A program made the position numbers and the translations under genes. The notes under the pieces were generated by a model. That model ran no database searches, had not been told where the DNA came from, and saw nothing but the letters and a program-made list of their open reading frames with translations. Below are positions 11,752 to 26,688 of a stretch of 64,000 bases of DNA, one piece after another (position 1 is the first letter of the stretch; each line of letters opens with the position of its first letter). The DNA is from an uncultured delta proteobacterium. Its GTDB lineage: Bacteria; Desulfobacterota; RBG-13-43-22. The stretch is taken from NCBI GenBank assembly GCA_963802945.1, contig CAWDKY010000030.1, positions 64,001 to 128,000 on the forward strand, given 5' to 3'.

Positions 11752-12659
11752 GCTTTTTCGTTCCGGGTAACAGTAATGTGCTCAGCCAGATCTCGCCCCA
11801 AAGCTATTTCCGTATCATGCACCTTGACCAAAACCGGACCACTATTGAAGTTCTCTAGCATCTTAACCACACTGCCGGGCGTAAAACCCAGAGAAAGACA
11901 GCGCCCCAGCAGACTACGTTCACCCGTATATTCTTTTAAGATTCCCGAATGTCCGGGAATAAGTTTGCTTAGAGGTGTTTCCTCTTTAACGGCCTCTGTT
12001 CGACGGATGGTGACTGGTTTTGCCTGAAGAACTGCGGCCAGCTTCGCGCTTAGTCGGATTCTTTTCTTGCCAGCTTCCAATTCAAGTGAACCATCTTCAT
12101 TCTTCTTTAATATTGTTACCACAACTTGTGGCTTTAACCCTTTTTTTTCTACATCCCTGAGTAATACGGAATCACCCTCGTCAATGGCAAGAATATTCAC
12201 CCGTTGAAGTGCCTGGAAACTTGTAAGAGGTAAGGCTTTTTCCTCCTTAACGTTGCCTTTTTTATCAGGAATAGAGTGCCCATGAGGACAGGTATCGGTG
12301 TCGCCTAGAATGACGGCTAATCTTTCTTCAACTTCTGGAACATCGACGTGTTCCAACTTACAGGCTGCCTCATGTACCTTATCCCATTTCATGCCAAGGA
12401 CATCTGTTAGAAATCTCTCCCACAACCGATGCCGGCGTATTACTCCAAGCGCTTTCTCCACGCCAAGATCGGTTAGCGTAGCGCCTTTACTTGATTGATA
12501 GTCAATCAATCCTTTGCTTTCAAGATTTTTCAGCATATCCGAAACTGCAGGTTGGGATACTCCCAAATCTCTGGCCAAAAAAGAGGTAGAGGCCGGCTCT
12601 CCCTTGCTTTGCTCCTTGTATATAGCCTCCAGATATTCTTCGGTTCTTTCACTATCCAT
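11748..12659 (-). CDS. DtxR/MntR-family metalloregulator with two C-terminal FeoA (SH3-like) domains
   Basis: EEYLEAIY, HTH, RRHRLWERFL, HEAACKLEH, CPHGHSIP; last domain SLGFTPGSVV..GPVLVKV..IALG is FeoA; ATG 12659 follows GGAGG. Confidence 0.88.
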   Translation of the reverse strand: MDSERTEEYLEAIYKEQSKGEPASTSFLARDLGVSQPAVSDMLKNLESKGLIDYQSSKGATLTDLGVEKALGVIRRHRLWERFLTDVLGMKWDKVHEAACKLEHVDVPEVEERLAVILGDTDTCPHGHSIPDKKGNVKEEKALPLTSFQALQRVNILAIDEGDSVLLRDVEKKGLKPQVVVTILKKNEDGSLELEAGKKRIRLSAKLAAVLQAKPVTIRRTEAVKEETPLSKLIPGHSGILKEYTGERSLLGRCLSLGFTPGSVVKMLENFNSGPVLVKVHDTEIALGRDLAEHITVTRNEKA

Positions 12660-12670
12660 TGAAGCCTCCA

Positions 12671-12692
12671 ATAATTAAGTTGGCTTAATTAT
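12671..12692. promoter_or_regulatory. Probable DtxR-family operator
   Basis: Perfect 9-4-9 palindrome ATAATTAAG-TTGG-CTTAATTAT between the minus-strand TTGCTT..GATAAT promoter and the RBS. Confidence 0.7.
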
Positions 12693-13239
12693 CGCATAGT
12701 TGTTATTTTTAAGCAAGAAGTATTTTTAATCACCTTTCAATGTTTTTCTCAAAAGTGCTGGGCAACACATTGAATATCGCTAACTTATGGACTAGAATTT
12801 AAGGTATGAGTGAGGCAAGCCACAAAGTTGACTATGGGAACTGGGTATCTGGGTATCAAAGAAGCTCTTTTATGTTTCCGCCTTATTGGCGATCATATTC
12901 TTAGGTTTATCTTTTTGTCGTTGTTATTCTTAGTCGGTACATTCCTCTTTTTAATACCCACAGCCTATTTTATCTATGATTATTTCCAGTTCTCACCCAG
13001 AGGTGACAATCTCCAGGACAATATAAGGGATTTGGCATTTAATCGGCTGGGTTGGCAAGGAAAGAAAAATACAGGGTCAAGGTAAAAGCAAGGCATTAGG
13101 TTTGGGTGGGGGCATCTGCTAGATCAAATCGCAGTCGGTACAGGTTATTTCATTCGCGGAAAATCTGACGAAAAAGGACTTGACACAGACACACCGGAGG
13201 TTGTATTAAGAAAATGCTGCTATAGAGGAAACGCAGAAA

Positions 13240-13396
13240 CACTAAGAAGGTGCTCGTAGCACTGTGTAGCTTTTTTAACTTGAACCTATTGTTTTTTGGG
13301 GTTCAAGGGTCCCGTTTTTCTGTTTTATAAAGTCAATGAGGCCATGAAGGCCCTCAAGCCGCATGAATGCGGAGTGGGCGTTCGTGGTTTTTTTTT
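13240..13396 (+). promoter_or_regulatory. Structured leader/attenuator A (ANGAA hairpins plus intrinsic terminator)
   Basis: CACT-AAGAA-GGTG (13240-52), GGCC-ATGAA-GGCC (13340-52), terminator GCCATGAA..TTCGTGGT plus T-run; TTGACA at 13180 upstream. Confidence 0.7.
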
Positions 13397-13505
13397 GCGC
13401 AAAGCCGTACCGAAACTACCCGCCCCTTCTGTTTTAATTTATTACGAAAGTCGCAAAATCAAATTTCATATCTTACTTCATTAATTTCAATAGGAAGGAG
13501 ATTAT

Positions 13506-15656
13506 ATGGTGAAGATTGCCCTCTTAATTTGCGCCTGGGTCATTCTGACGTTCTTCTCTGTTTGCGTGTGGGCGGCGGACACGGACAGCAGTGCGCCACC
13601 AGCGGAAATATCCTCACCTGCTACAGGTGAGATTCCAAAGGGCGCTGTTCAATCGTTAGTGTTGCCCGAGATAGTAGTTGAGGGGCGAAGCGACAACATG
13701 CTCGGCATCAGTGATACTTCTACTCAGGGCACGATTGGCGCCCAACAACTGGAAGAGCGGCCCATCTCCCGTCCCGGAGAAGTGCTCGAGACCATGCCCG
13801 GAGTCATCGTCACTCAGCATAGCGGCGACGGAAAGGCTAACCAGTATTTTCTCCGCGGCTTCAATCTCGACCACGGCACGGACCTGGCCAGCTTTTTCAA
13901 CGGCATTCCGATCAACTTGCCTTCGAACGCTCATGGCGAGGGCTACACGGACCTCAATTTTCTCATTCCCGAACTGATCAAGAAGATAGACTACGGAAAA
14001 GGGCCAAACTTCGCCAACGTGGGGGACTTCGGCTCTGCCGGCTGGGAAAATATTCAAACCTTTCAGACCCTTCCTGCCGGCCTGGCAAAGATTGAATGGG
14101 GCAGTTGGAATTATGAGCGCGGCCTGTTGGCCGATTCGACCAAGGTCGGCCAGGGCAATCTCCTCGGCGCCCTTGAATGGATGCACACCGACGGACCTTG
14201 GGACGTGCCTGAGAATTATGTGAAATTAAATGGAATAGTAACCTACAGCCAGGGGGACACAAGTCAGGGCTTCAGCGCAACGCTAATGGGCTATCACGGC
14301 ACATGGAATGCGACCAACCAAATCCCGGAGCGAGCGGTCGCCGAGGGGCTCATCGATCGTTTCGGAAACCTGAACCCGACTGATGGAGGTCTAACTGACC
14401 GCTACACCCTGTCAGCCGAATATCATCAAGCCGACGATCACTCGGCTACCAAGATCCTGGGATATGTGTATTACTATAACATGGGGCTCTGGAATGACTT
14501 CACCTTCTTCCTGGATGATCCCGTCCATGGGGACCAGTTTGAGCAAAAGGATACACGATGGGTGCAGGGAGTGAGAGCAAGCCGGACATGGTTCGGCAAC
14601 TGGTGCGGCCTGACAATGCAAAACACTATCGGATTCGACATTCGAAACGACGTGATTCACGACAGCCTGTTGCACACCGAGAACCGGATAGTGCTGTCCA
14701 CAACTCGTGCGGATGATATCGTGGAAACGGACCTGGCCCCCTACTTTGAGAACAAGATTAATTGGCTGCCATGGTTTCGCACCGTTGCGGGCTTTCGCCT
14801 AGATTTCATTAATTTCAACAACAAGAACCTTTTCACCTATTATACCAATGGCCCCAACCCCGCTGACAGCGGAAACCAGTTCGCCTACACTCCCGAACCT
14901 AAGCTGTCTTTGATCTTCGGCCCATGGGCCAAGACGGAGTTCTACCTGAACGGTGCCATGGGCTTCCACACCGACGACGCGCGGGGTATAAATACTACTC
15001 AAGATCCGACCACCGGCGCGCCGGTGCAAAGGGCCTTACCGATAGCGCAAACGTTGGGTGCAGAGGTTGGCGTGCGCACTCTGGCTATCCCAAACCTCCA
15101 AAGCACATTGACGCTCTGGGTGCTGAGGCTGCAATCCGAACTAATCTTTGACGGGGATACAGGTACGACCGAAGCCAGTCCTTACCCCGATCTTCGCAAA
15201 GGGGTGGAATGGGCAAACTACTACACCCCGACCAAATGGCTGACGATCGACGCCGATTTTGCCGACTCCTCAGCGCATTACTTAGGCAATCCGGTGGGGG
15301 GCGATTATGTCCCCGAAGCGGCCAGCCTAATTATTTCCTCCGCCATCACGGTGCATGACCTAAAAGGCTGGACTGCCAGCCTGCGGTGGCGATATTTTGG
15401 ACCTCGCGCCTTGACCCAGGACAATAGCGAACGCTCCCCCAGCACCAGCCTGCTATATTTCCACCTTGGCTACAAAATCAACAAAAACTGGTTGATTGAG
15501 GGAGATATCTTCAATCTCCTCGATGCGAAAGCCGACGATATAACCTACTATTACACCTCCCGGCTGCCAGGAGAGCCGGCTGCTGGTGTAAATGACTTCA
15601 TGTTCCACGCGGCCGAGCCGCGCACCTTCCGCGTTGCACTGACGTACCATTTTTAG
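13506..15656 (+). CDS. TonB-dependent receptor (probably Ni/Co-type family)
   Basis: Signal peptide, TonB box LPEIVVEG, plug motif GKANQYFLRGFNLDHGTD, C-terminal YHF; substrate inferred. Confidence 0.88.
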   Translation: MVKIALLICAWVILTFFSVCVWAADTDSSAPPAEISSPATGEIPKGAVQSLVLPEIVVEGRSDNMLGISDTSTQGTIGAQQLEERPISRPGEVLETMPGVIVTQHSGDGKANQYFLRGFNLDHGTDLASFFNGIPINLPSNAHGEGYTDLNFLIPELIKKIDYGKGPNFANVGDFGSAGWENIQTFQTLPAGLAKIEWGSWNYERGLLADSTKVGQGNLLGALEWMHTDGPWDVPENYVKLNGIVTYSQGDTSQGFSATLMGYHGTWNATNQIPERAVAEGLIDRFGNLNPTDGGLTDRYTLSAEYHQADDHSATKILGYVYYYNMGLWNDFTFFLDDPVHGDQFEQKDTRWVQGVRASRTWFGNWCGLTMQNTIGFDIRNDVIHDSLLHTENRIVLSTTRADDIVETDLAPYFENKINWLPWFRTVAGFRLDFINFNNKNLFTYYTNGPNPADSGNQFAYTPEPKLSLIFGPWAKTEFYLNGAMGFHTDDARGINTTQDPTTGAPVQRALPIAQTLGAEVGVRTLAIPNLQSTLTLWVLRLQSELIFDGDTGTTEASPYPDLRKGVEWANYYTPTKWLTIDADFADSSAHYLGNPVGGDYVPEAASLIISSAITVHDLKGWTASLRWRYFGPRALTQDNSERSPSTSLLYFHLGYKINKNWLIEGDIFNLLDAKADDITYYYTSRLPGEPAAGVNDFMFHAAEPRTFRVALTYHF

Positions 15657-15746
15657 TAACTTTAGGCATGATGGAACGGTATCCTTTCCCGTCCACTCTT
15701 AGTCAGTGGTATGCTGATGAAGCTTTAATAAGAATTTGGTAAGGGA

Positions 15747-16493
15747 CTATGACTCCAAGCGATAAATGATGGGAATAACCAGCCGAGCCTCACCAGGCGG
15801 CTTTGGGAAGGGGGCGGTGTCCTTAACGGTCTCTATGGCACTCTTATCCAGTATGGTAAAACCTGAACTTTGAATGATCTTGAATTCTCTGACGGATCCG
15901 TCTGCCGTAATGATAAAGGAAAGAAGGACTTTCCCTTGCCAGCCCATGCGCCGTGCCATGTCAGGGTAGTTGATGTTCCTGAGAATTTTATCTCGAATAT
16001 AGGCAAAGTGACTTTTTAAATATTTTGCCTTAGCCGATTCGTTCCCACCATCCGAATTTCCCAGGCCTGAGCCTGTTCCCGACCCCTCTTTTGACCCTCC
16101 GGGGGTTCCAGGGGATCCCTCTTTGATAGACTTTGAACCGGTCACCATTCCAAGGCCAAGAGAACTGCCTCCTGGGTCTTGGGCTTCCGGGAGTTTCACC
16201 ACTGCTGGAATTTCCGGGGAGGGTGATAGATTGGGCCTTTCTTCCGGCAATCTGGGAGGTTCTTTTTCCTTTAAGGCCTGACGGGCCTTGGGCTTAATCG
16301 GTTTTGTTTTTATAGCAGGCGTTGGAGCCTGCGGTTCGACCTTTTTGGCATGGAATTCCGGTTTACGCAAATTGAAATCCAATACCGTCAACTTTTTAGA
16401 TTGACCGATGAAGATGCTTAGAATGATGACAACGACAAGAATCAGGCTGTGAAGCAGAAAGGATATTTGGAAGGCCCTGGTCTGGTAATTCAC
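15747..16493 (-). CDS. tonB: Energy transducer TonB
   Basis: N-terminal TM with SFLLH, Pro/Lys-rich linker, YPDMARRMGWQGKV..SSGFTILDKSA. Confidence 0.92.
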   Translation of the reverse strand: MNYQTRAFQISFLLHSLILVVVIILSIFIGQSKKLTVLDFNLRKPEFHAKKVEPQAPTPAIKTKPIKPKARQALKEKEPPRLPEERPNLSPSPEIPAVVKLPEAQDPGGSSLGLGMVTGSKSIKEGSPGTPGGSKEGSGTGSGLGNSDGGNESAKAKYLKSHFAYIRDKILRNINYPDMARRMGWQGKVLLSFIITADGSVREFKIIQSSGFTILDKSAIETVKDTAPFPKPPGEARLVIPIIYRLES

Positions 16494-16870
16494 GGTCCTT
16501 CCTCGGTCTGGAGACTGATGCGGGAAAAATCCAAGCCCTTGAGGACATCCAGGACACTGACGAAGTTCTGCAGGATGATGCTGCGGTCGGCCCTAATCAA
16601 AACAGGGACTTTCTTGTTCAGGGAACTCAGGTCGGTTTTCAACTCTTCCAAAGATACGGGTTTGGAATTCAAATAGATCTTTCCGGCCCGGTCGATTTCA
16701 ATGGTCTGGGTTTTCAGGATTTCCCCTGCGCTTCGATGGGCTTTGGGCAGATCCATGGGAATCATACCGCTGGCGATAAAGGAAGAGGTGGTGAGCACAA
16801 TGGTCAGGAGGACCAGCATGACATCCACTAGGGGAATGACATTGATATAATCAAACTCCTTTTCTTCCAC
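16490..16870 (-). CDS. exbD: Biopolymer transport protein ExbD
   Basis: INVIPLVDVMLVLL, VLIRAD. Confidence 0.93.
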   Translation of the reverse strand: MEEKEFDYINVIPLVDVMLVLLTIVLTTSSFIASGMIPMDLPKAHRSAGEILKTQTIEIDRAGKIYLNSKPVSLEELKTDLSSLNKKVPVLIRADRSIILQNFVSVLDVLKGLDFSRISLQTEEGP

Positions 16871-17285
16871 GTTCGATCTCCCAGTTCATAAGCAGGACTT
16901 TAACTTTTCTAAGCAGAAAATTGTATAACGAGACGGAGGGAATGGCCACCAGAAGGCCGATGGCCGTGGCCTTCAAGGCCAGGGCCAGACCGACCATGAT
17001 CTTGCCCGTGTCCATAAAACCCTCTTGCCCGATCATATAAAAAGTCAGCATGATACCCAGGACCGTTCCCAACAGACCGATATAGGGGGCATTGCTGCCT
17101 ATGGTGGCGATGAGATGGATTTTTTTGGTGAGTTCCAACTCCAGGCTCTTTTGGTCCGGGAAGGCCTCCAGTTTTATATGTTTATAGACATGAAACCTTT
17201 CGATGGCAATCCCTACGGCCATCATACTTAAGAGGATCAAAAATCCTATGATCCCATAATCGACAACAACTTTAAGCCATTCCAT
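16851..17285 (-). CDS. exbB: Short-type ExbB
   Basis: ATIGSNAPYIGLLGTVLGIM, ALKATAIGLLVAIP. Confidence 0.93.
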   Translation of the reverse strand: MEWLKVVVDYGIIGFLILLSMMAVGIAIERFHVYKHIKLEAFPDQKSLELELTKKIHLIATIGSNAPYIGLLGTVLGIMLTFYMIGQEGFMDTGKIMVGLALALKATAIGLLVAIPSVSLYNFLLRKVKVLLMNWEIERGRKGV

Positions 17286-17379
17286 TTTTTCTCCTACTCG
17301 ATTTCAGCAAGACTCTGAGACCGAAAATGGCCAGAGTGAAGCTTATTCTACGGAAGTCTTTGTATATTTGGCCAACGAT

Positions 17380-18141
17380 TTACCTTTCTATTGAGAGCGG
17401 TACAATAAGAAGAACACCATTGATCTCGGTTACCATCACCTCCATGTTAAAGGCCTGTTTGATGATCTCGGGGGTGATCACCGATCGGTCACCGTGAGCG
17501 TAAACTCGTCCTTCTTTGAGGATGAAAAAACCATCGGAAAACCTCAGGGCCGTATTCAAATCGTGCATTACAGAAATGGTGATGAGACCGAGTCTCTTAG
17601 TAATGTCCTTTAGGAGATTCATGATTTCAAACTGATTTTTCATGTCGAGATGGTTGATGGGCTCATCCAGAAGCAAAACCTTCGGTTCTTGGGCGAGAGC
17701 CCTGGCAATAATCACTTTCTGAAGTTCCCCGCCGCTCAGTTCTGTAGTAAATCGCATGGCGTACCCCTCAAGCCCTGTAAGTCTGAGCATATTGCGGGTT
17801 ACTTCCAAATCAAGCTCATTGATATCCCAATCAATGTGAGGTCTTCGGCCAAGAAGGACGGCATCGAAAACGGTACAATGAACGCCGTTGGACTTCTGAG
17901 GCATATAGCCCATGGTCTTGGCGATTTGTTTCCGACTCATGGCCTCAACGTTTTGTTGGTCTATAAAAATGGTCCCTCGATGGGGAACGAGGATCCTGTT
18001 CATGGTCTTAAGTAGGGTTGTTTTCCCTGAGCCGTTGACACCAAGCACCGAAACCAGGTCCCCAGCCTTAAGCTGAAAGGTAATATCTCTCAGGACTTCC
18101 CTGGAACCATAGGAAAAGGCAATGCCATCCAAGACCAGCAT
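17380..18141 (-). CDS. Metal-chelate ABC transporter ATPase (FecE/BtuD type)
   Basis: GVNGSGKT, LSGGELQK, LLLDEP, MHDLN. Confidence 0.92.
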   Translation of the reverse strand: MLVLDGIAFSYGSREVLRDITFQLKAGDLVSVLGVNGSGKTTLLKTMNRILVPHRGTIFIDQQNVEAMSRKQIAKTMGYMPQKSNGVHCTVFDAVLLGRRPHIDWDINELDLEVTRNMLRLTGLEGYAMRFTTELSGGELQKVIIARALAQEPKVLLLDEPINHLDMKNQFEIMNLLKDITKRLGLITISVMHDLNTALRFSDGFFILKEGRVYAHGDRSVITPEIIKQAFNMEVMVTEINGVLLIVPLSIER

Positions 18142-18142
18142 G

Positions 18143-19198
18143 TTAAATGGTTCTCCCTTTAATTAAAAGATAAAGAAAAATAGGAGCGCCGGCAAAAGAG
18201 GTGATGATTCCTACCGGCAGTATAATCGGCTCCATAACCGTACGGGCAATAATGTCCGAGAGCAGGAGGATGAGTCCGCCGGAGATTGCTGATAAGGGTA
18301 TTAGGAAGCGATAATCGTTGCCTACCATTCGTCTCATGAGGTGGGGGGCCATGAGGCCAATGAAACCTATGATGCCCAGGAAGGCAGTGGTCACCGAAAC
18401 CATCAGTGCGGAAAGAAGCAGGCTCATCAGACGCAGGCGTCGAACCGAGACGCCAAGCCCCTTAGCTGCATCATCTCCCCACTGAAAGGCGTTGTAGTCC
18501 CATCCCTTACGTAAGAAGATGACAAATATCGGGCATAAAATCAGGCTCATGATAAGATTCTCTCCCCAACCGGCCTTACCCAGATCGCCGAAAGTCCAGA
18601 AAATAGTGGCCGCCACCTGCATGTCTGTGGCAAAATATTGAAGGAACATGGTTCCTGCAAGGAAGAAGGCACTCAGGGCAACACCGGCCAGGATAACACC
18701 TTCACTGCTGATTTGCCTTAAGGTGGAAATTAAGAGTATCAGTCCTACGGTCAGCAGGGAACCGACAAAAGCCGCCGGCACGACAACCGATGGCAGGCTG
18801 GTGGTAACGGCCTCAATCCCTTCTGTGTGGACCTTTCCCGCCCCTAAAACGATAATGGCGAAAGCTGCACCAAAGGCCGCCCCGTGGGACACCCCGATGG
18901 TGAAAGGTTCAGCCAAAGGATTTCTGAAGACATTTTGTAAAACCACACCAGCCAGCCCCAGCCCGGCCCCGGCGATTACAGCCCCGATAATTCGGGGAAG
19001 TCTAATATTCCACAGCACATGATGATCAAGCCCATTAGCGTTCCAAGAAAACAGGGTGAAGAGAATCTCTCTCAGCGAAAGATGGATGGATCCTACTTTT
19101 AGAGAATAAAGGCCTGCTCCAAGAAGGAGCAATAGGAGGACCACCCCCGTCCAAATTTTTTTCTTTGTCAGCTCCCGGTAGCCATCTTCCGGTTGCAT
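18143..19198 (-). CDS. FecCD/BtuC-family ABC permease
   Basis: IRLPRI, FRNPLAEP, GIIGFIGLMAPH, LPVGIITS; start placed at ATG 19198. Confidence 0.92.
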   Translation of the reverse strand: MQPEDGYRELTKKKIWTGVVLLLLLLGAGLYSLKVGSIHLSLREILFTLFSWNANGLDHHVLWNIRLPRIIGAVIAGAGLGLAGVVLQNVFRNPLAEPFTIGVSHGAAFGAAFAIIVLGAGKVHTEGIEAVTTSLPSVVVPAAFVGSLLTVGLILLISTLRQISSEGVILAGVALSAFFLAGTMFLQYFATDMQVAATIFWTFGDLGKAGWGENLIMSLILCPIFVIFLRKGWDYNAFQWGDDAAKGLGVSVRRLRLMSLLLSALMVSVTTAFLGIIGFIGLMAPHLMRRMVGNDYRFLIPLSAISGGLILLLSDIIARTVMEPIILPVGIITSFAGAPIFLYLLIKGRTI

Positions 19199-19199
19199 C

Positions 19200-20327
19200 C
19201 TACTGGATACGAAGACCCTCTTTTTCAAAAAGCACCTTTCCAAACCCGTAGAGTTCCTTCTTGATCCGATTATATACGGGTAACCCTATAAAGAAGTTAA
19301 AGATCTCATCCGTTTTCTTTGCCGGTTCAATATCCGCAAAATGCGTAGGATAGAGTATTCTCCCTATAAAATAAGCGTCGGCAATCATGATTTCTATGTT
19401 GGTATGATAATAATTATAGGGCAGGGTGAGAAATACCCTATTTTTCTGTACAGCGGAAAGGCGTCTATAAAACCCTGCATTCCGGCGATAATCGGATTGG
19501 ACCATCTCCAGGCCCCCGGCATCGATGAATATGAACTCTGGGTTCCAGAGAAGAAGCTTTTCAGGATCAATGTAATTATGGCCGGTCCGGCCGATTTCAT
19601 TAGCCACGTTTCGGGCTTGGACCCATTCAAGAGGCAGGTAAAAAGCCTCGGTACTGGTTAGACCATGCACCCCCTTGAAGCCGATGGCCCCCACATAGGC
19701 CCGGGGACGTAAGCCATCCGGGATATCGGAGGTTCTGTCTCTGAGATCCTTTTCAGACTTCTTGATAAAGGCGATAACTTCTTCGGCCCGAGCACTTTTA
19801 TCCAGAAACTTTCCGGCCAGCCGCAGGGATCCGAAGATATTTTCCTTGTCCAAACCTCCTCCGGGAGAGCCATAGCTCAGCACCACCACAGGAATTCCAG
19901 TCTTTTGCTGAATGGTTTCGACCTGGGCAAGGTCTACTCCCATGGCCAGGATCAGATCAGGTCTGACAGCGATGATCTTTTCAAAATCCGGCAGTTTCCC
20001 AGGTCCTCCCTCCCCGATGTCCGGTAAGGATTGAGCAATTTTTTCAACGGCCAGGCTGTACACCCGGGTGGTAGGTAATGGTTTCTGTTTTTCCAATCTT
20101 TCCACACCGGCAACTTTATCAAGGGCCTGAAGGTAGACTACAAAACGCAAGGCCCCACCTAAGGGTACGATCCGGCTGACTCTTTGAGGGATGCGCACTG
20201 ACCTTCCCGCCATGTCCTTTATGGTGAGATTTTCCTTTGCGGCCAGGACCTGAACATTGGAATAAATCAAGCAACCAAGTATGATCCCTAACATTAAGAT
20301 ATTCGAACGCCTCAAATAACCCGCCAT
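19200..20327 (-). CDS. Metal-chelate ABC substrate-binding protein (FecB/BtuF type)
   Basis: IKDMAGRSVRIP..VSRIV, DFEKIIAVRPDLI, EKLLLWNPEFIF, LSAVQKNRV. Confidence 0.9.
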   Translation of the reverse strand: MAGYLRRSNILMLGIILGCLIYSNVQVLAAKENLTIKDMAGRSVRIPQRVSRIVPLGGALRFVVYLQALDKVAGVERLEKQKPLPTTRVYSLAVEKIAQSLPDIGEGGPGKLPDFEKIIAVRPDLILAMGVDLAQVETIQQKTGIPVVVLSYGSPGGGLDKENIFGSLRLAGKFLDKSARAEEVIAFIKKSEKDLRDRTSDIPDGLRPRAYVGAIGFKGVHGLTSTEAFYLPLEWVQARNVANEIGRTGHNYIDPEKLLLWNPEFIFIDAGGLEMVQSDYRRNAGFYRRLSAVQKNRVFLTLPYNYYHTNIEIMIADAYFIGRILYPTHFADIEPAKKTDEIFNFFIGLPVYNRIKKELYGFGKVLFEKEGLRIQ

Positions 20328-21103
20328 ACAATAACCCCCTCTTCTACATAGGTGCGATGACGCACCCTGCCGTTTACCTCCATTTGGGAAACCACATCCC
20401 GTATGAGCTTTCTTTGGGCAGGGTGTCCGGTAAGCTCGATATGACCGGCCAGATCTTCAAGGGTTTCATCGACCGTGCCTTCCCAGTCCCAGAAGGTGTT
20501 TATGAAATCAAGGCTCGAAGACCAGCCTGTTTTTTTCAGCAGATTGTAAATGATCAAAGCTCCCGGCGGTGGTCCGAAAGGCAGACTGTGTATTCGGAAG
20601 ACCTCTTCCATTAAGGTGTTTTTCCGTTTATTGCCCCAACCTACATAGACGCACCACTGTTTGGAACAAAGCATCATCTTTTTAACATCTTCTTCGTCAC
20701 AGACCGCCATGGACATGGACGTCCAAACGATATCGAAACTCCTGAGGAATCCCTGCAAGGAGACGTCAAGGGAGTCCCAGGATGCCTGGAGATGATCCCA
20801 ATTATGGATGCCGTGCCTTTGGGCTTCCTCCTCAAACAGGCCCAGCATCTTTTCTGAGATATCGACCCCGGTAACCTTCAAGGCCTTGCGGGCCAGCGGC
20901 AAGGTATAGATACCCGTACCGCAACCGATGTCGAGAATGTCGGCCCCTGCGGTTTCAACCCCCTTACTTGTAACCAGGGATATAACCTCTTCGGTTTTTT
21001 TGAGATTTTCAGGGTCAAAAGGTAAGGGATACTTCTTGGCCTTCATCTCCCAAAAATTTCTGAAACGGTCCTCCCGGAACCTGGCTTCCCTTTCAGTATC
21101 CAT
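20312..21103 (-). CDS. Class I SAM-dependent methyltransferase
   Basis: ILDIGCGTG, VTGVDISEKML, FDIV. Confidence 0.9.
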   Translation of the reverse strand: MDTEREARFREDRFRNFWEMKAKKYPLPFDPENLKKTEEVISLVTSKGVETAGADILDIGCGTGIYTLPLARKALKVTGVDISEKMLGLFEEEAQRHGIHNWDHLQASWDSLDVSLQGFLRSFDIVWTSMSMAVCDEEDVKKMMLCSKQWCVYVGWGNKRKNTLMEEVFRIHSLPFGPPPGALIIYNLLKKTGWSSSLDFINTFWDWEGTVDETLEDLAGHIELTGHPAQRKLIRDVVSQMEVNGRVRHRTYVEEGVIVWRVI

Positions 21104-21113
21104 ACCATTTCCT

Positions 21114-23210
21114 CTAAAAAGTGAGTTTTATAGCTGTACCAATTACCCTGCCCAGCGAAGGGTACCCCAGGACCTCTTGGTATTGTTTGTCAAAGAGATT
21201 TTCAACATACAAGCTTAGTTCGACGTGTTTCATCAGTGGTATTTTGAGTTCCACATCAGCGGTAATAAACGAATCCAGGGTCATGAGTTTGTAGTTTGTC
21301 GTTTGCGGCCATCCCCAGCCGGTGCTGTAAGTATAAATGGTCTTCTGTTCCCCCACGTAACGGGCAGTCGTGTTTAACAGCATCTTATAAGGAAGCTTCC
21401 AGTCCAGCCCTAGACTTCCCTTCCATTCAGGCAAGTAATCAAGTTCATCCGTAAGGTGGGCCGTATCGAAAGGATCTCCTTCTTTTTTGCTTTTCTGGTA
21501 GGTTAGGTTGGCCTTGGCAGAAAGCCAACCGGTAATATCTGTTCGGCCCTCAACAGAACCGCCCCATAAGGTGACCTTGTCAATATTATAGGTCCCTTGC
21601 CAATTTGGGTCGAATCGCATATATATAAAATTATCTATGTTGTAATAGTAGGTGGAGAGACGCACGGAACTCTTTTTCCCAAAATTATGCTGATAGATAA
21701 GCTCCCCGGCGGTGTTTTTCTCAGGTTGAAGAACGGGGTTTCCGTGGGTCTGCCCGGTAGCCCACCAATACATCTCCGGTAGGTTAGGGGTTCTTAGGGC
21801 CTGGTATACTGACGCCGTCAGTGTGTCAGAAGGAGTTATTTTGAAGGTACCGGTCAGCTTCGGAGAAAATCCATCATCATTCAGTTCAGGAATTGTACTG
21901 CCGTTTATGGGAATCAGATGGTAGATATCATATCTTAATCCCAAGGTTGCTGTGAACCAGTCGGACATTTTCCAGGTGTCCTGAGCATAATATCCCCAAT
22001 TTTTGCCTTCCTGCGACGGAGCATAGCCGCTATAAGGCTGCCCGTTATATGTGGTATCGACATAATTTACAATAGTATTACCGAAGGCCAAGACCTTATA
22101 GTCCACACCCATAATCAGCTCATGCTTCCCAAGCGGTATCGTCCCCTTTAAATTTCCTCCATAGGACCGGTCGGATTCAACGGTCCTGTCGAGCACGAGG
22201 ATCCCATCGGGATAACCGCTTACTACGGAACTCGACGAGTAGTTTTTTTCCCTTCTGTCCTCTATGTTCTTATAAACCTTGAACTCCACCAGCGCATCGC
22301 CAATGGGCTGCTTATAGCCCAAATCAAGATAATATTTTGTCTTGTCCCATTGGGCATCAGGTCCGGGGGTGGAGACATTTCCCATATAGGGGGATAGGGT
22401 TTCTCCAAAGGCGAGGGGATAGTTCGGATTTTTTTTTACGAAAAAATTGGGATTGGTCGGGTCGTCTGATAACCTGTTCTCCCGAATAAAACCCCGCACG
22501 GTATTGTTGTATTGGAGTCCCAGGGACAGCTCCCCCCGAAGCGGCATATCCAGATATAGCGATCCGGCAAAATTTTTGGCCTCAAAATCATTGTTCCATA
22601 GAAAAGGGTCTCCCTTCTGGTAACTGGCGGCCAGGGAATACCCCAGAGGTCCGATTTTGTAAGTATGGGTCAGACGGTAGTTCTGGATGCCTTCGCCGTC
22701 TTGCCCAATCCCGTAGTTCCCGTAAAAAGTCAGTGTGGGGGTTTCCGTGGGTCTTTGGGTTACCACATTGATTACACCTCCAAGAGCATTGTTGCCATAA
22801 ATGGCCGAACTTCCCCCCTTGATTATTTCAATCCGTTCAATGTTGTCGAGAGGGATGGTGCCCCAGTCAATGAAGTAACCGCCCACTACCCCTGCTGCAT
22901 TTACCGGTCTGCCGTCGATGTTCAACAAGATTCTGTCCCCAGACAAACCCCGGATCGATAAAATATCAGCCGTATCGCCGATGCTGGCCCTTCTGTGCAA
23001 ATCAATATCGGGTTCGTTTTTTAATACATCGGGGATGTTAACGTTCTTTCCCCGTTCAATGGTCTCCTTCCCGACCACGGTCGCTGCGGGTTCGGAGGAA
23101 ATAGAATCCGTTACCACGATCTCCTCCAGCGTAAGATGATCAACCTCCGTAGCCCATCCGAAGCTGGCAAACAAAGAAAACAATATGGTGAATAAAATAA
23201 TAACAGGCAT
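21114..23210 (-). CDS. TonB-dependent receptor
   Basis: TonB box LEEIVVT, IERIEIIKGGSSAIYGNNALGGVINVVT, NPVLQPEK, VENLFDKQY, terminal F. Confidence 0.93.
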   Translation of the reverse strand: MPVIILFTILFSLFASFGWATEVDHLTLEEIVVTDSISSEPAATVVGKETIERGKNVNIPDVLKNEPDIDLHRRASIGDTADILSIRGLSGDRILLNIDGRPVNAAGVVGGYFIDWGTIPLDNIERIEIIKGGSSAIYGNNALGGVINVVTQRPTETPTLTFYGNYGIGQDGEGIQNYRLTHTYKIGPLGYSLAASYQKGDPFLWNNDFEAKNFAGSLYLDMPLRGELSLGLQYNNTVRGFIRENRLSDDPTNPNFFVKKNPNYPLAFGETLSPYMGNVSTPGPDAQWDKTKYYLDLGYKQPIGDALVEFKVYKNIEDRREKNYSSSSVVSGYPDGILVLDRTVESDRSYGGNLKGTIPLGKHELIMGVDYKVLAFGNTIVNYVDTTYNGQPYSGYAPSQEGKNWGYYAQDTWKMSDWFTATLGLRYDIYHLIPINGSTIPELNDDGFSPKLTGTFKITPSDTLTASVYQALRTPNLPEMYWWATGQTHGNPVLQPEKNTAGELIYQHNFGKKSSVRLSTYYYNIDNFIYMRFDPNWQGTYNIDKVTLWGGSVEGRTDITGWLSAKANLTYQKSKKEGDPFDTAHLTDELDYLPEWKGSLGLDWKLPYKMLLNTTARYVGEQKTIYTYSTGWGWPQTTNYKLMTLDSFITADVELKIPLMKHVELSLYVENLFDKQYQEVLGYPSLGRVIGTAIKLTF

Positions 23211-23531
23211 TAGGCATCTCCTTTTTTGTTTTAATTTTCACCCCCTTTCTGATATATTTTTATAAGGGAGCGAAGTGTTTTGTAGCGTTTCCCTGCAGAC
23301 AGGGCGCTACCGGCTAAAGGTTCCCGCCCTGTCTGCCTTCTCTTAACTTTTTAGGGTATTAACCCTGTCTCAATAAGCATCATTTCCTTCTTCTTCCCAA
23401 AAAAAACTTAGGCATCAGGTTATTCCTCCCATCCAGGTGTATATTCCCACCGCTTTTTCCCCCCGGTGGCTTAAGTTAATATGGGGATACCGTTTTTGGG
23501 TTAAACCAGAAGTGGTCTTCTTAAAACCCTT

Positions 23532-24146
23532 TTAATACCGTCTTTCCATATCTTCAAAACAAGGGATACACAGTACCTTTTCCTGAAAACGCCGTGTTCG
23601 TGTCTCCATGACTGCCTCACCACACGAGTCACAGATCAAACTGGACAGGATCCGGGCTTTCCTGGGAGCAGGTTCGGATGGGGTCTTGATTTCAAAGAGT
23701 TTGTTAAAATCAGCTTCCATAATATGCCGGGAGATTCGCTCCTGGCTTTCCTGCCAAGTCTTCTCTTCCTCTTCAGTCAAGCCCTCTTGCTGCATCTTTC
23801 GAAAAAACTCTTTGAGGATCGGTCCGGATTCTCCAAAAATATCTGGACGGGCTATCAGCCGGGCTGATTTACCGTCCCGTCTCCGGTAGAAGGTAAAGGC
23901 GTTTTTCCCGAAGTCCTTGTGAATCAAGTTGCCCTTGCCAAAGGTGCAGCCGGTTAAAAATTGTATGGCGTCTACGCCACACATGTCGGTTTCCACTACG
24001 GCCACAATTTCTTCGTCCGAGGCCTTGCCCATTTCCTCAACGGCCCACTGGGCAGCCCGGATTCCAACGGCCAGTCCAGGACACCAATGGCCGTGAAAAG
24101 AGATTGTTTGTTCGATGCGTTGGGGATTTATTGGTGCAGCGCTCAT
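23532..24146 (-). CDS. FmdE-family protein with C-terminal zinc finger
   Basis: FHGHWCPGLAVG, ETDMCGVDAIQFLTGCTFGKGNL, CDSCGE..CIPC; ATG 24146 after AAGGAG. Confidence 0.92.
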   Translation of the reverse strand: MSAAPINPQRIEQTISFHGHWCPGLAVGIRAAQWAVEEMGKASDEEIVAVVETDMCGVDAIQFLTGCTFGKGNLIHKDFGKNAFTFYRRRDGKSARLIARPDIFGESGPILKEFFRKMQQEGLTEEEEKTWQESQERISRHIMEADFNKLFEIKTPSEPAPRKARILSSLICDSCGEAVMETRTRRFQEKVLCIPCFEDMERRY

Positions 24147-24169
24147 AAATTTCTCCTTAATAAAGTCCA

Positions 24170-24357
24170 TTATTCTTCAAAATAAATTTTGTGATTGACC
24201 AGGTTCATCATTTTGATTCGAGCCTTTATGGTTTTCTGATCTCCAAAGATGTCTAACAGACGAAACTTATCAGATCCTTCAGGCTCGATCACATCCACAG
24301 ATTCCATAAGAAGCTCCTCCTCCCCCCTTTAACCAAATACGCATTGGATTCACACAT
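24170..24357 (-). CDS. cooT: CooT-family nickel-binding protein (one base missing in a G6 run at 24322-24327)
   Basis: With one G restored: MCESNAYLVKGGEEELLMESVDVIEPEGSDKFRLLDIFGDQKTIKARIKMMNLVNHKIYFEE (62 aa); Cys2, DIFG and the late His; strong AAGGAGG RBS; not in ORF track. Confidence 0.88.
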
Positions 24358-24419
24358 CTTTCAATTCCTCCTTCCCCGCCAATCACATACACGCTTGGTC
24401 GGCATAACTATTTATATCG

Positions 24420-24526
24420 AAAAAAAAAGCCACGAAAACCGAGCTGCTTCTTGCAGCTTTGGCCTTCGTGGCCCTGTTTAAAACAACTTCTTATAATTTA
24501 AATTACCAGTAGTGTGCCTTCTTGGC
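24420..24526 (-). promoter_or_regulatory. Structured leader/attenuator B (ANGAA hairpins plus intrinsic terminator)
   Basis: Minus strand: GCC-AAGAA-GGC (24526-16), GGCC-ACGAA-GGCC (24473-61), terminator GCCACGAA..AGCTGC-AAGAA-GCAGCT..TTCGTGGC plus T9; TTGACA..TAACCT upstream. Confidence 0.75.
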
Positions 24527-24833
24527 GTTCCTTGTTATAAAAGAGGTTACCTTAATCACTTGGTGAATGTCAATAAAAAATTCCCCGATTATTCCCTTTG
24601 ATCTCCTTTCCTTACTTCTTTTATAATCCGGCCATTTCAAAAATAATTTGATAGAAGTGTCTTTTTGATAAGAAGAGCATAACATAAGAAAAAAAAGCGA
24701 AAGGTAATTGGATGAAAAAATTTTCTTGACAATTGCGCAATTTCCATTAAGTTGTCCCTTAATATAGTAGGCTTGTTAAAAAAAATGGTTCACAGTTTGC
24801 TTTTCTTTACCTGAGAGTTATCATTTTAAGCTA

Positions 24834-25121
24834 ATGAATAGAAAATTTGCGTTATTCCTGCTCCTCTGTTTTTCTCTCTCCATTCTGGGGCTCGCCTTTC
24901 ATCACCATCAGGATGGAGTCCCCCATGACGACTGTTCCATCTGTTTTAATGTCGCCCACCAGGCAAATTTGGCTTTTGTTGATGTTCCTCAAATCGCACT
25001 ACCAACTTTCTATATTTCCCTTATCTCTTTAGAAAACACGACCAACTTATCCTATCTTTTTTGCTCTCCATACTCAAAACGAGCTCCCCCGCGTAGTTTC
25101 CAAACGCCAAAACGACTTTGA
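24834..25121 (+). CDS. DUF2946-like leader protein (signal/TM, His-rich CxxC, RAPP)
   Basis: Hydrophobic N-terminus, HHHQDGVPHDDCSICFNVAH, C-terminal KRAPP. Confidence 0.75.
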   Translation: MNRKFALFLLLCFSLSILGLAFHHHQDGVPHDDCSICFNVAHQANLAFVDVPQIALPTFYISLISLENTTNLSYLFCSPYSKRAPPRSFQTPKRL

Positions 25122-25176
25122 TCTAAGAAACCAAGAGACATTTCATCAGAAAAACTGAATAAGGAGAGGTGCCATC

Positions 25177-26688
25177 ATGAAAACCATGATTACACTCGTC
25201 ATAGTGCTATTTTTATCATTTTCGACAAGCTTGTCTGCTCAGACCTTGGAAGACCGACTAAAAACCCTTGAGGAGACTCTCAAAAAACAGGAACAAACCC
25301 TCTCTGAGCAACGAAAGTTGTTTGAAGAATTAAAAGCAGAACAGCCACAGTCTCCTGCTTCCCCTGGTCAGACTTGGGAAGATCGACTAAAAACCCTTGA
25401 GGAGACTCTCAAAAAACAGGAACAAACCCTCTCTGAGCAACGAAAGTTGTTTGAAGGATTAAAAGCAGAACAGCCACGGCCCCCTGTTTCCTCCGCTGGC
25501 GCCACGACGAATCAGACCGTGGCGCCGGTGCAGTTACAGCAGCAAGTACAGGAGTTGACGGAGAAGGTGGATCAAGTGGTCGAAGCGCAGAAGAAGACCC
25601 TTCCCAGTGAGTTCAATCCTTCCATCGGGCTCGTGGGTGAAACAGTTTTCTCTTACAACAATAAGGGAATGAATGAAACAGGCAGCGCCCGGCCCGGCGG
25701 GTTCGATGTATTCCAACGTTCGGTGGAACTGAACCTGGCTGCCTCGGTCGATCCCTTTGCCCGCGGTTATGCGGTGATCAATGCTTCCGCCGACCCGATT
25801 ACCGGCGAATCAACCGCGACAGTGGAGGAGGCCGCCCTCGTCACGACCTCACTGCCCTGGAACCTGACGGTTCAGGCGGGACGATTCTTCGCTGAATTCG
25901 GTCGGTTGGCCTACATCCACGATCATGAACTGCCCGTTGTGAACCGTCCGTTGGTGCTCGATCAATACATCGGCGGCGAATCAAAAACAGACGGGGTACA
26001 GATCAACTACCTGCTGCCGATCCCGCATTACGTGAGCCTGACCGTAGGCGCGGGCGATCAGTTTGGCGACACACCCAATAATGTCGGCGATTTTCGTGAT
26101 TTCAGCGGGTTGAATTTTTGGGGCCGCGCCTCCACCTATTTCAACCTGACCCCCGATATCTCCTTCGAACCCGGCCTTTCAGGGCTGTGGAATCCGAGTG
26201 CCAATGACCGTGGCGGCGCGCTTCTCCAACCCGATGGCAGCACGTTTTACGAACGTGAGCGCCGCTTGTACGGAGCAGACTTCGTGCTGAGCTGGCGGCC
26301 GCTGCGCAACAATCAGTTCCAGAGCATCACCTGGGGAACCGAAGTGCTTTACAGCGACAACCGCTATGACGTTACTTCAGCAGGCAGCGACCTGGTCAGC
26401 CGCTCCGTGGGCTCCTTGGGCCTGTATTCATATCTGGCTTACAAGTTCCATCGGCAATGGACAGCCGGGTTCGCCTTTGACTGGGTGGAGAACGCGCAGA
26501 ATAATGATGCAAAAACCTCAGCCTACTCGGCCTACCTCACCTGGTCCTTGAGCCACTGGAATCAACTGCGCCTTCAATACACCCACACCGACAACAATGC
26601 CGCAACCGGCCTGCAAACCAATGATGCCGTTTATCTGCAATGGACCTGGATCATCGGCTCACATTCACATGGGTGGCAGCAACGCTGA
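25177..26688 (+). CDS. Outer-membrane beta-barrel protein linked to a Zn/Mn-type ABC transporter
   Basis: Signal peptide, coiled coil, FNPSIGL..VELNLAASVDPF..VEEA..GRFFAEFGRL..HDHE, amphipathic strands, C-terminal IGSHSHGW. Confidence 0.75.
   Translation: MKTMITLVIVLFLSFSTSLSAQTLEDRLKTLEETLKKQEQTLSEQRKLFEELKAEQPQSPASPGQTWEDRLKTLEETLKKQEQTLSEQRKLFEGLKAEQPRPPVSSAGATTNQTVAPVQLQQQVQELTEKVDQVVEAQKKTLPSEFNPSIGLVGETVFSYNNKGMNETGSARPGGFDVFQRSVELNLAASVDPFARGYAVINASADPITGESTATVEEAALVTTSLPWNLTVQAGRFFAEFGRLAYIHDHELPVVNRPLVLDQYIGGESKTDGVQINYLLPIPHYVSLTVGAGDQFGDTPNNVGDFRDFSGLNFWGRASTYFNLTPDISFEPGLSGLWNPSANDRGGALLQPDGSTFYERERRLYGADFVLSWRPLRNNQFQSITWGTEVLYSDNRYDVTSAGSDLVSRSVGSLGLYSYLAYKFHRQWTAGFAFDWVENAQNNDAKTSAYSAYLTWSLSHWNQLRLQYTHTDNNAATGLQTNDAVYLQWTWIIGSHSHGWQQR
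25239..25496 (+). repeat. In-frame 129-bp tandem duplication (2 copies)
   Basis: QT(L/W)EDRLKTLEETLKKQEQTLSEQRKLFE(E/G)LKAEQP repeated; DNA units start at 25239 and 25368. Confidence 0.95.

Follow-up and report, generated by a model that had tools for sequence, protein, structure and literature searches.

A motif of GAA-loop hairpins and an intrinsic terminator, a candidate RNA attenuator, precedes nickel-uptake genes in Desulfobacterota and other phyla

In the available excerpts of the papers cited, the regulators described for nickel uptake are DNA-binding proteins, NikR (PMC545781, PMC11672702) and Nur (PMC2691836). The accessible part of a 2024 review of metallostasis names NikR-type proteins for uptake and only the NiCo riboswitch as an RNA-level sensor of nickel or cobalt (PMC11672702), and in the portion available of a review of antiterminators the word nickel does not occur and no metal-sensing member is mentioned (PMC12591593). 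Among RNA-binding antiterminators, the ANTAR proteins have target RNAs with hexaloops that carry A at position 1 and G at position 4, and the eut leaders have linkers of 5-12 nucleotides (nt), with linkers of 3 or 14 nt abolishing induction (PMC3369931, from the parts available). Here we describe an RNA element present in two leaders, A and B, of a 64,000-nt stretch of DNA from an uncultured delta proteobacterium (GenBank assembly GCA_963802945.1, contig CAWDKY010000030.1, positions 64,001 to 128,000 of the forward strand), which we call the window. The element constitutes an RNA family absent from Rfam, and it would be of a known regulatory kind, attenuation by competing hairpins.

The original prediction, made from the letters of the window, held that two otherwise unrelated 5' leaders share one architecture. 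This was confirmed in the sequence, and the search pattern and the covariance model R1 described below extend it to other genomes. Leader A lies on the forward strand. Its promoter-like site (13180..13209) consists of an exact -35 hexamer, TTGACA, at 13180-13185, an 18-nt spacer and TATTAA, and is also present in the orthologous leader of the related genome G005. Downstream are hairpin 1 (hp1; CACU-AAGAA-GGUG, 13241..13253, -2.3 kcal/mol), hairpin 2 (hp2; GGCC-AUGAA-GGCC, 13340..13352, -6.8 kcal/mol), which is the conserved core, and an intrinsic terminator (13340..13396, -31.0 kcal/mol) with its stem at 13340-13387, a run of nine U at 13388-13396 and a tip hairpin with a UGAA loop (CCGCA-UGAA-UGCGG, 13359-13372). 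Leader B, on the reverse strand, has the -35 hexamer TTGACA, again exact, at 24573-24568 with an imperfect -10 region, hp1 (GCC-AAGAA-GGC, 24526-24516, -4.0 kcal/mol), hp2 as the conserved core (GGCC-ACGAA-GGCC, 24473-24461, -7.2 kcal/mol) and a terminator (24473-24420, -32.8 kcal/mol) whose stem spans 24473-24429, whose nine U span 24428-24420 and whose tip hairpin has an AAGAA loop (GCUGC-AAGAA-GCAGC, 24457-24443). The promoters had been called sigma70-like; this stands for the -35 hexamers, while a sigma-70 consensus scan of the window called neither promoter because the -10 boxes are imperfect. Orthologues of leader B in relatives keep TTGACAT-N14-15-(T)CGTA. Hairpin 1, claimed to have covarying stems, is present in both leaders, though the copy in leader A is weak and lies outside the minimum-free-energy (MFE) fold; it is retained in the G005 orthologue. 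A third ANGAA-like loop had been expected at the terminator tip, which is what leader B has, whereas leader A has UGAA.

In both leaders the 5' arm of the strong intrinsic terminator is GGCCAYGAAGGCC, which can fold alternatively as a 4-bp hairpin with an AYGAA loop. Because these 13 nt of hp2 are the 5' arm of the terminator, the two structures are mutually exclusive, as had been proposed. The MFE fold holds the full terminator in leader A (z = -2.66, 1 of 200 dinucleotide shuffles being as stable) and in leader B (z = -4.48, 0 of 200), and each terminator consists of a stable GC-rich stem-loop and then a U tract. The terminator units score 63.3 bits (A) and 64.4 bits (B) with R1. The two leaders can be aligned with each other only at the hp1 loop, hp2, the 3' arm and the U run, and no antiterminator complementary to the 5' arm was seen upstream in either. 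A leader peptide reading ATG-AGG-CCA-TGA over hp2, as leader A and the copies on contig C50 would allow, was rejected because leader B has ACGAA and so no ATG at hp2. A separate feature of the B-type leaders (window 24405-24362 on the reverse strand, and loci L048 and L051) is the sequence UAUGCCGAYCAAGCG, common to them just past the terminator. It could open a mini open reading frame (ORF), MPTKRVCDWRGRRN in the window and MPIKRVC... in G009.

Further copies were sought in 41 genomes, the window's own (G000; 4.37 Mb, 72 contigs, 47.4% GC) and 40 relatives, with the strict pattern GCCAYGAAGG-N15-45-TTCRTGG-N0-1-TTTT. The window's genome has four matches, leaders A and B and two tandem units on contig C50, ahead of a paralogue of the receptor gene behind leader A. 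Seven of the 41 genomes contain the pattern, and the same pattern read backwards as a control gave 0 matches in all 41. The covariance model R1 was built from 12 units and applied to 21 family genomes at E<=0.01, of which 16 had matches; as anticipated for such a search, these lie before cbiM/nikM and TonB-dependent receptor genes. The matches form three groups. Single units stand right after the promoter and before cbiM/nikM (MHIPDG...) in seven genomes (G006, G007, G009, G013, G014, G018 and G019). Units with an upstream hairpin precede TonB-dependent receptor, exbB, fecCD-like and fmdE genes, and the stems of these upstream hairpins vary (GGCC/GGCC, GGCU/GGCC, GCC/GGC, GGGC/GCCC, GGC/GCC) around ACGAA or AUGAA loops. 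The third group is the terminator of a histidine-rich ORF. This ORF, ending ...HDHQHQCCH, is found upstream of leader-A-type units (L047:13258-13500, L050, L051:1-247 and L055, from G007, G006, G013 and G002), and its terminator bears a GCCACGAAGGC arm and an inner C-AGAA-G loop; in the window no histidine-rich ORF stands before leader A. Two R1 matches, G012:C49 and G005:C17 (GCCATGGGGAG...), were discarded as false for want of a GAAGG core, and G012 was scored motif-negative because its match was the false one on C49.

The global scan used the pattern GGCCAYGAAGG-N15-45-TTCRTGG-N0-2-TTTT on one genome per species and gave a set of at least 120 loci with 127 sites; the denominators 127, 88 and 86 used from here on count sites or loci among the matches listed. 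Downstream genes were taken from crude ORF calls grouped into BLASTP clusters, each named from one Pfam-scanned representative. A nickel/cobalt-uptake or associated cluster occurs within the first four downstream ORFs at 88 of the 127 listed sites, compared with 10 of 127 when the same sites are read in the antisense direction, which supports the claimed link of the element to nickel-uptake genes. At 72 of 127 the first two ORFs include a transporter component. The clusters comprise CbiM, CbiQ and ABC ATPase; TonB-dependent receptor, ExbB, ExbD and DUF3450; FecCD and Peripla_BP_2; SBP_bac_5 (NikA-like), BPD_transp_1, DUF4198, PDGLE, methyltransferase, FmdE and CooT; and two outer-membrane channel families and DUF6802/MORN. 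The sequence TTGAC lies within 250 nt upstream at 66 of the 88 listed sites in the sense direction and 13 of 88 in antisense. By record title, the 88 listed loci are from Desulfobacterota in the old "delta" sense (66), Nitrospirota/Thermodesulfovibrionales (11), Bacillota (6), spirochaete-like organisms (2) and Anaerolineae (1), with 2 unplaced.

The 39 listed sites (of 127) without a nickel-type context were left out of the hairpin counts. Some resemble coding sequence (for example L071, L088, L097, L111, L137, L147, L173, L176, L179 and L185), some are the reverse strands of two-way terminators (L133-, L163-, L168-, L175+) and some lie at locus ends (L099, L108, L149, L160, L165). Some of those left out are probably real, such as L098, a TonB-dependent receptor (TBDR-A) orthologue, and L099, where MHIPDG comes next.

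Several observations on individual loci of this set concern the genes around the motif. In L171, which has two sites, the first gene behind the motif encodes what we take, from its N-terminal sequence (MxKITAxxWxSHxTTMRRA..., 1284 amino acids), to be a CobN-like large chelatase subunit, and a gene of this type is first behind the motif at G091:C20:30168 in Desulfofundulus australicus; this hints at an ATP-dependent chelatase within the motif regulon. In four Nitrospirota loci (L079, L118, L132, L142) the first ORF after the motif encodes a protein of about 65-76 amino acids, LxHWxEHNxEHxxxYxxWA, whose L142 representative has no Pfam match. A TrmO_N protein (PF01980, about 180 amino acids) is encoded just upstream of the motif in L110, L133, L157 and L174, on the same strand in three.

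The loops of the additional hairpins are strand-specific. Counting as hp1 any hairpin no more than 150 nt upstream that has four or more stem pairs and a loop of 4-5 nt with GAA as its last letters, 53 of the 86 evaluable sites among those listed have one, compared with 2 of 86 for the reverse complement and 3.9 of 86 for shuffles, and a tip hairpin (hp3) whose loop ends in GAA is present at 33 of 88, compared with 1 of 88 for the mirror control of loops starting with TTC. The third loop of the original prediction is therefore real, but optional. The hp1 stems among the listed sites are all different and include G-U pairs, and their loops are UGAA (15), AGAA (7), AUGAA (6), ACGAA, UCGAA and AAGAA (5 each) and others. 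The gap between hp1 and hp2 ranges over the listed sites from 18 to 126 nt, with a median of 54 (87 nt in leader A and 42 nt in leader B). At least one extra hairpin accompanies hp2 at 64 of the 86 listed sites, hp2 standing alone at the other 22. Covariation is also seen within the terminator: the Y of the 5' arm and the R of the 3' arm are UA in 35, CG in 45, UG in 6 and CA in 2 of the 88 listed sites, that is, pairable in 86. The two positions that follow GAAGG are occupied by pyrimidines, able to pair with the GG at the start of hp2, in 87 and 74 of the 88. Compensated hp2 stems occur among the covariance-model matches, AACC-ACGAA-GGUU in G004 and ACC-AUGAA-GGU twice in Desulfofundulus australicus. 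The obligatory unit is thus an intrinsic terminator with GGCC-AYGAA-GG(Y)(Y) as its 5' arm, which by itself can fold as hp2; most copies add one or two GAA-loop hairpins, hp1 upstream and hp3 at the terminator tip. The rule for the loops is a length of 4-5 nt with GAA at the 3' end, most often on a closing C-G pair, and not strictly ANGAA. This core is conserved across phyla in leaders that are not otherwise alignable.

The original prediction expected no Rfam match, and this was the result. In a search of window positions 12000-26000 with Rfam 15, no family overlaps leader A or B at E<=10, and at the gathering score there was no match at the motif positions of 18 other loci. The same search of the 18 loci detected real cobalamin riboswitches and tRNAs, and it can be taken to work because RF00174 was found away from the motif in L102 (2068-2277), L125 (2337-2455) and L169 (2558-2744). 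Cobalamin riboswitches neighbour motif operons within a few kb, on different genes, and in those loci they are separate elements. Sub-threshold matches to snR75, MIR530, Fluoride (16.6 bits) and other families, elsewhere in the window, were taken as chance. No description of the motif was found in the accessible main-text passages of the literature searched, two recent reviews among it.

Our interpretation, which we hold to be reasonably probable from the sequence comparisons, is that this widespread element acts in cis, as an RNA, to control whether operons for the uptake of nickel (and possibly cobalt) are transcribed. From its arrangement we infer an antitermination action, a protein factor, a nickel signal and the direction of the response. 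The bare leader should terminate, because the terminator (about -31 kcal/mol) is some 24 kcal/mol more stable than hp2 (about -7 kcal/mol), and transcription would stop in the leader. A trans-acting factor would recognise the GAA-loop hairpins and hold hp2, so that the terminator would be blocked and RNA polymerase would enter the uptake genes. The hairpin array reads as a set of protein binding sites and not as a ligand pocket, because there are one to three hairpins at free spacing with nothing conserved between them, and the factor would most likely be an RNA-binding protein, oligomeric and free of nickel. Since the target genes encode importers, binding, and with it read-through, would be expected at low nickel.

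The signal is probably nickel. The regulated genes favour it because they include CbiM/NikM, NikA-like binding proteins, DUF4198 and CooT, and so does the separateness of the cobalamin riboswitches in motif loci. The distribution of NikR points the same way, because NikR is rare in carriers. Among 50 motif-bearing genomes, representing 50 of the 88 listed loci (hand-picked before the results, skipping second loci per assembly and some near-duplicates, and thus not random), NikR was found in one, compared with 11 of 41 in the own-phylum sample. Within that 41-genome sample, which after one false match was dropped has 19 motif-positive and 22 motif-negative genomes, the contrast is weak (NikR in 4 of 19 and 7 of 22, respectively). 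Nickel is favoured, finally, by the window's own genome, because there a cbiM follows nikR, with a NikR-type palindrome and without the motif: at G000:C15:290500-292460, nikR, an outer-membrane-channel-like ORF and cbiM (MHIPDGYL) lie on the same strand, cbiM 0.86 kb past nikR, the palindrome GTAGCAC-N13-GTGCTAC precedes nikR, and no motif copy stands before cbiM. This layout implies that in this genome the energy-coupling factor (ECF) nickel transporter would be controlled by NikR, with the RNA motif standing before genes of the TonB-dependent systems.

Other explanations of the same structures can be weighed against a nickel-responsive protein that holds hp2. A protein-free riboswitch, in which Ni2+/Co2+ or a small metabolite is bound by the GAA-loop hairpins themselves and tips the competition of hairpin and terminator, has a precedent for so small an aptamer within a terminator stem in the hydroxymethylpyrimidine pyrophosphate (HMP-PP; thiS) riboswitch. 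It would also fit the lack of a candidate protein universal among carriers and the occurrence of the motif, by record title, in Bacillota, Nitrospirota, Chloroflexota and Spirochaetota besides Desulfobacterota, and the GAAGG purine run offers N7 ligands as in the NiCo riboswitch (PMC11672702, available excerpts). We nonetheless regard it as improbable: hairpins that vary from one to three in number and from 18 to 126 nt in spacing fit an array of binding sites and not a pocket, no more than about 5-7 nt are conserved in each hairpin, and a ligand that stabilised the hairpins would induce importers at high metal, which is the wrong logic. An ANTAR-domain regulator binding the two hairpins would bring the same logic of small, loop-lettered hairpins set against a terminator (PMC3369931, in part), and here too one hairpin excludes the terminator. 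The loop rule of ANTAR targets fails, as the original prediction had noted, and so does the linker rule: the loops are 4-5 nt ending in GAA and not A1/G4 hexaloops, the linkers of 87 nt in A, 42 nt in B and a median of 54 nt over the listed sites compare with 5-12 nt in eut, and single-hairpin copies exist, so that this reading is very unlikely. A search for the ANTAR domain (PF03861) gave no match in G000, but none in 14 control genomes either. The idea that the motif is a DNA operator for a repressor, or a set of ordinary terminators alike by descent or chance, seems even less credible. GGCC-N5-GGCC is also a DNA palindrome, and hp1, or hp2 in single-unit leaders, lies near the predicted transcription start. 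On the other hand, the loop letters are strand-specific for both hp1 and hp3, the sites stand before genes in the sense orientation, the reversed pattern is absent from the 41 genomes, the core is kept across phyla in unalignable leaders, and a repressor would have no constant DNA sequence to recognise because the hp1 stems vary freely, G-U pairs included.

Within a protein-mediated attenuation mechanism, the best genomic candidates for the factor are the proteins of the DUF3842-CooT gene pair, a conserved adjacent pair across phyla. Profile searches found DUF3842 and/or cooT in 18 of the 88 listed loci, always on the motif strand. In eight of these (L101, L124, L127, L141, L144, L164, L184, L186) the pair ends 59-366 nt before hp2, and the next gene is cbiM or a TonB-dependent receptor gene, a layout like hutP-terminator-hutH (PMC12591593, in part). 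In 4-6 of the 88 the pair is directly behind the motif, and it is first behind the leader in L087, L140, L162 and Desulfofundulus australicus. The window departs from the hutP-like layout in having cooT behind the terminator. The suggestion that an apo-CooT dimer binds the GAA-loop hairpins directly and antiterminates, with Ni-CooT releasing them, draws on this linkage and on the first place of cooT behind leader B, and CooT binds one nickel per dimer via Cys2 with a dissociation constant of 9 nM (PMC6006190, in part). CooT was detected in 43 of the 50 carriers, and in 17 of 19 motif-positive and 10 of 22 motif-negative genomes of the 41-genome sample. The expected co-occurrence with cooT thus holds for most carriers, but seven of the 50 have no detected CooT (four of them have DUF3842), G010 and G018 carry the motif without it, and it is found in related genomes without the motif. 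CooT is also acidic (median isoelectric point (pI) 4.8; the 7 sequences examined all have net charges between -3 and -6), its only solved relative is CooT itself, no evidence of RNA binding was found, and the window's own cooT is frameshifted as assembled. The linkage, though real, is equally expected of nickel chaperones merely co-regulated with uptake. We consider direct action of CooT unlikely, and it is no more than a candidate for the sensor.

A slightly fainter prospect is that the antiterminator which binds the RNA is DUF3842, either by itself or together with CooT, which would then sense the nickel. It is the best-correlated family tested, being found in 47 of the 50 carriers, including the four without CooT mentioned above, and in 17 of 19 motif-positive and 9 of 22 motif-negative relatives; 8 of the 11 NikR-positive relatives lack it. 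In L112 (Anaerolineae) DUF3842 is found alone, 217 nt before hp2, and its charge is near neutral to basic (median pI 7.75). An alpha/beta nucleotide-binding fold serves as an attenuation protein in PyrR. Against this, the AlphaFold model of DUF3842 (predicted local distance difference test, pLDDT, 89) is a generic Rossmann-like fold, and its Foldseek matches are weak (UbiX-like decarboxylase and FtsZ N-domain, template-modelling (TM) score about 0.5) and include no known RNA-binding regulator. DUF3842 is absent from 3 of the 50 carriers, and the copies in the window's own genome are truncated (C14) or broken or frameshifted (C22/C23), leaders A and B being kept all the same. The sole literature mention found appeared, from its search listing, to be unrelated. 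Taken together, the genomic evidence makes it possible, if doubtful, that the factor is DUF3842 and/or CooT, with CooT alone the smaller part of that chance. We would propose, equally tentatively, that in NikR-less anaerobes a nickel metallochaperone module (DUF3842 with CooT) binds the GAA-loop hairpins as an antiterminator when nickel-free.

Several points weigh against the interpretation of the element as a gate on nickel uptake. Of the sequencing runs listed as containing the stretch, none is recorded as RNA. No tested family is found in every carrier (CooT 43, FmdE 42 and DUF3842 47 of 50). By our own criteria the 22 of 86 listed sites with hp2 only are part of the set, and because of them a dimer bridging two hairpins is not a universal mode. 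The global set was chosen by a pattern that fixes hp2 and the 3' arm, so that conservation of those letters within the set is circular. The ORF calls and the clustering are crude, and the cluster first called FecCD includes ABC ATPases. The co-occurrence counts are indicative only, because many of the genomes are metagenome-assembled and the relatives are not independent. Instead of the Ni2+ ion, the signal could be cobalt or a chelate.

The genes behind the two leaders were assigned from ORFs and Pfam scans. Leader A is followed by a TonB-dependent receptor gene on the forward strand (13506..15656; Pfam Plug and TonB_dep_Rec_b-barrel). The first gene behind leader B was predicted to be cooT; a Pfam CooT match supports this, and the gene (24170..24357, reverse strand) is not intact as assembled, with a break at a run of six G at 24327-24322. 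Its start (MCESNAYLVKGG) and the CooT match (PF10133) sit in different frames, and the match, in ORF 24307-24170, spans only profile positions 18-59 of a full domain of about 60 amino acids, to which the nickel ligand Met-Cys2 at the N-terminus belongs. A related contig in DNA run X3 has one extra base at this G run, and one more G would join the frames; the frameshift may have arisen in the assembly of the homopolymer, may mark a genuine pseudogene or may reflect a variable tract. The operon behind leader B (15747..24170, reverse strand) continues with FmdE plus a DksA/TraR zinc finger (24170-23532), a second TonB-dependent receptor (23210-21114), a class I S-adenosylmethionine (SAM) methyltransferase (21103-20312), a periplasmic binding protein (20327-19200), a FecCD permease (19243-18143), an ABC ATPase (18141-17380), ExbB (17285-16851), ExbD (16870-16490) and TonB (16493-15747). 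Directly upstream of leader A, at 9754-12671 on the reverse strand, a DtxR-family repressor fused to two FeoA domains lies beside feoB; this is a separate Fe/Mn module.

The other cooT loci of the window's genome, on contigs C14, C22 and C23, have no motif. At G000:C14:200671-200950, DUF3842 is cut to its first 31 or so residues, directly before an intact cooT. Three short contigs repeat, in diverged form, loci that the assembly also has elsewhere: C50 (4.9 kb) has fmdE-leader-TBDR, and C22 and C23 (5.7 kb each) have DUF3842-cooT. Several of these copies contain frameshifts or stop codons. These diverged short contigs and a contamination figure of 6.7% suggest that the assembly mixes strains.

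A conserved attenuator before importers would fill a gap in the control of nickel uptake, since no NikR was found in 49 of the 50 carriers, from at least five phyla. If the DUF3842/CooT module were the factor, it would be the first metal-sensing RNA-binding antiterminator, DUF3842 would gain a function, and the old "predicted RNA-binding" label of the CooT family would be explained. The motif also serves as an annotation marker that links poorly understood genes to nickel acquisition, among them FmdE-like zinc-finger proteins, class I methyltransferases, DUF4198, DUF3842, DUF6802/MORN, CobN-like chelatases and particular TonB-dependent receptors. The question is accessible to bench testing in three cultured carriers, Desulfofundulus australicus DSM 11792, with 4-5 copies of the motif on one contig, Desulfoluna butyratoxydans MSL71 (L178) and Desulfoferrobacter suflitae DRH4 (L174). 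With its length of about 60 nt, the element might also be used as a small nickel-responsive part after its factor has been found.

Among known systems, the motif shares its regulon with NikR, namely nikMNQO/cbiM and outer-membrane receptors, and presumably also repression at high nickel, but NikR reads the DNA palindrome GTGTTAC-N13/14-GTAACAC (PMC545781, in the excerpts available), which is not present in leaders A or B, whereas the signal of the motif would lie in RNA. With the NiCo (czcD) riboswitch it would have in common the sensing of nickel or cobalt at the RNA level; that riboswitch, as the available text describes it, is a four-way-junction aptamer that induces efflux genes (PMC11672702), while the motif precedes importers and has no Rfam match. 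The ANTAR systems (EutV, NasR, AmiR) likewise use short hairpins read by their loop letters and closing pair, one of which shares sequence with the terminator, so that the bound factor blocks termination (PMC3369931, in part). They differ in that the motif loops are 4-5 nt ending in GAA (AAGAA, AUGAA, ACGAA and UGAA in the window) with no hexaloops, that there are one to three hairpins with an hp1-hp2 gap of 18-126 nt over the listed sites, and that the terminator-overlapping hairpin of the motif precedes its closest partner, hp3, whereas in ANTAR targets it follows its partner. The hut regulator is encoded immediately ahead of its terminator (PMC12591593, in part), and DUF3842-cooT is placed similarly relative to the motif in 8-10 of the 88 listed loci. 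HutP, PyrR, TRAP and LicT/GlcT resemble the mechanism proposed here in that a ligand-controlled RNA-binding protein chooses between a terminator and an alternative fold, but their sites are NAG or GAG repeats, ribonucleic antiterminator (RAT) elements or the PyrR box. In lambda, finally, N binds boxB, a pentaloop hairpin in nascent RNA, as an antitermination protein; its loops are GNRA-like (GAAAA or GAAGA), and it acts through processive modification of RNA polymerase and not through competition with a terminator. The sensor of the candidate attenuator described here may itself be new.

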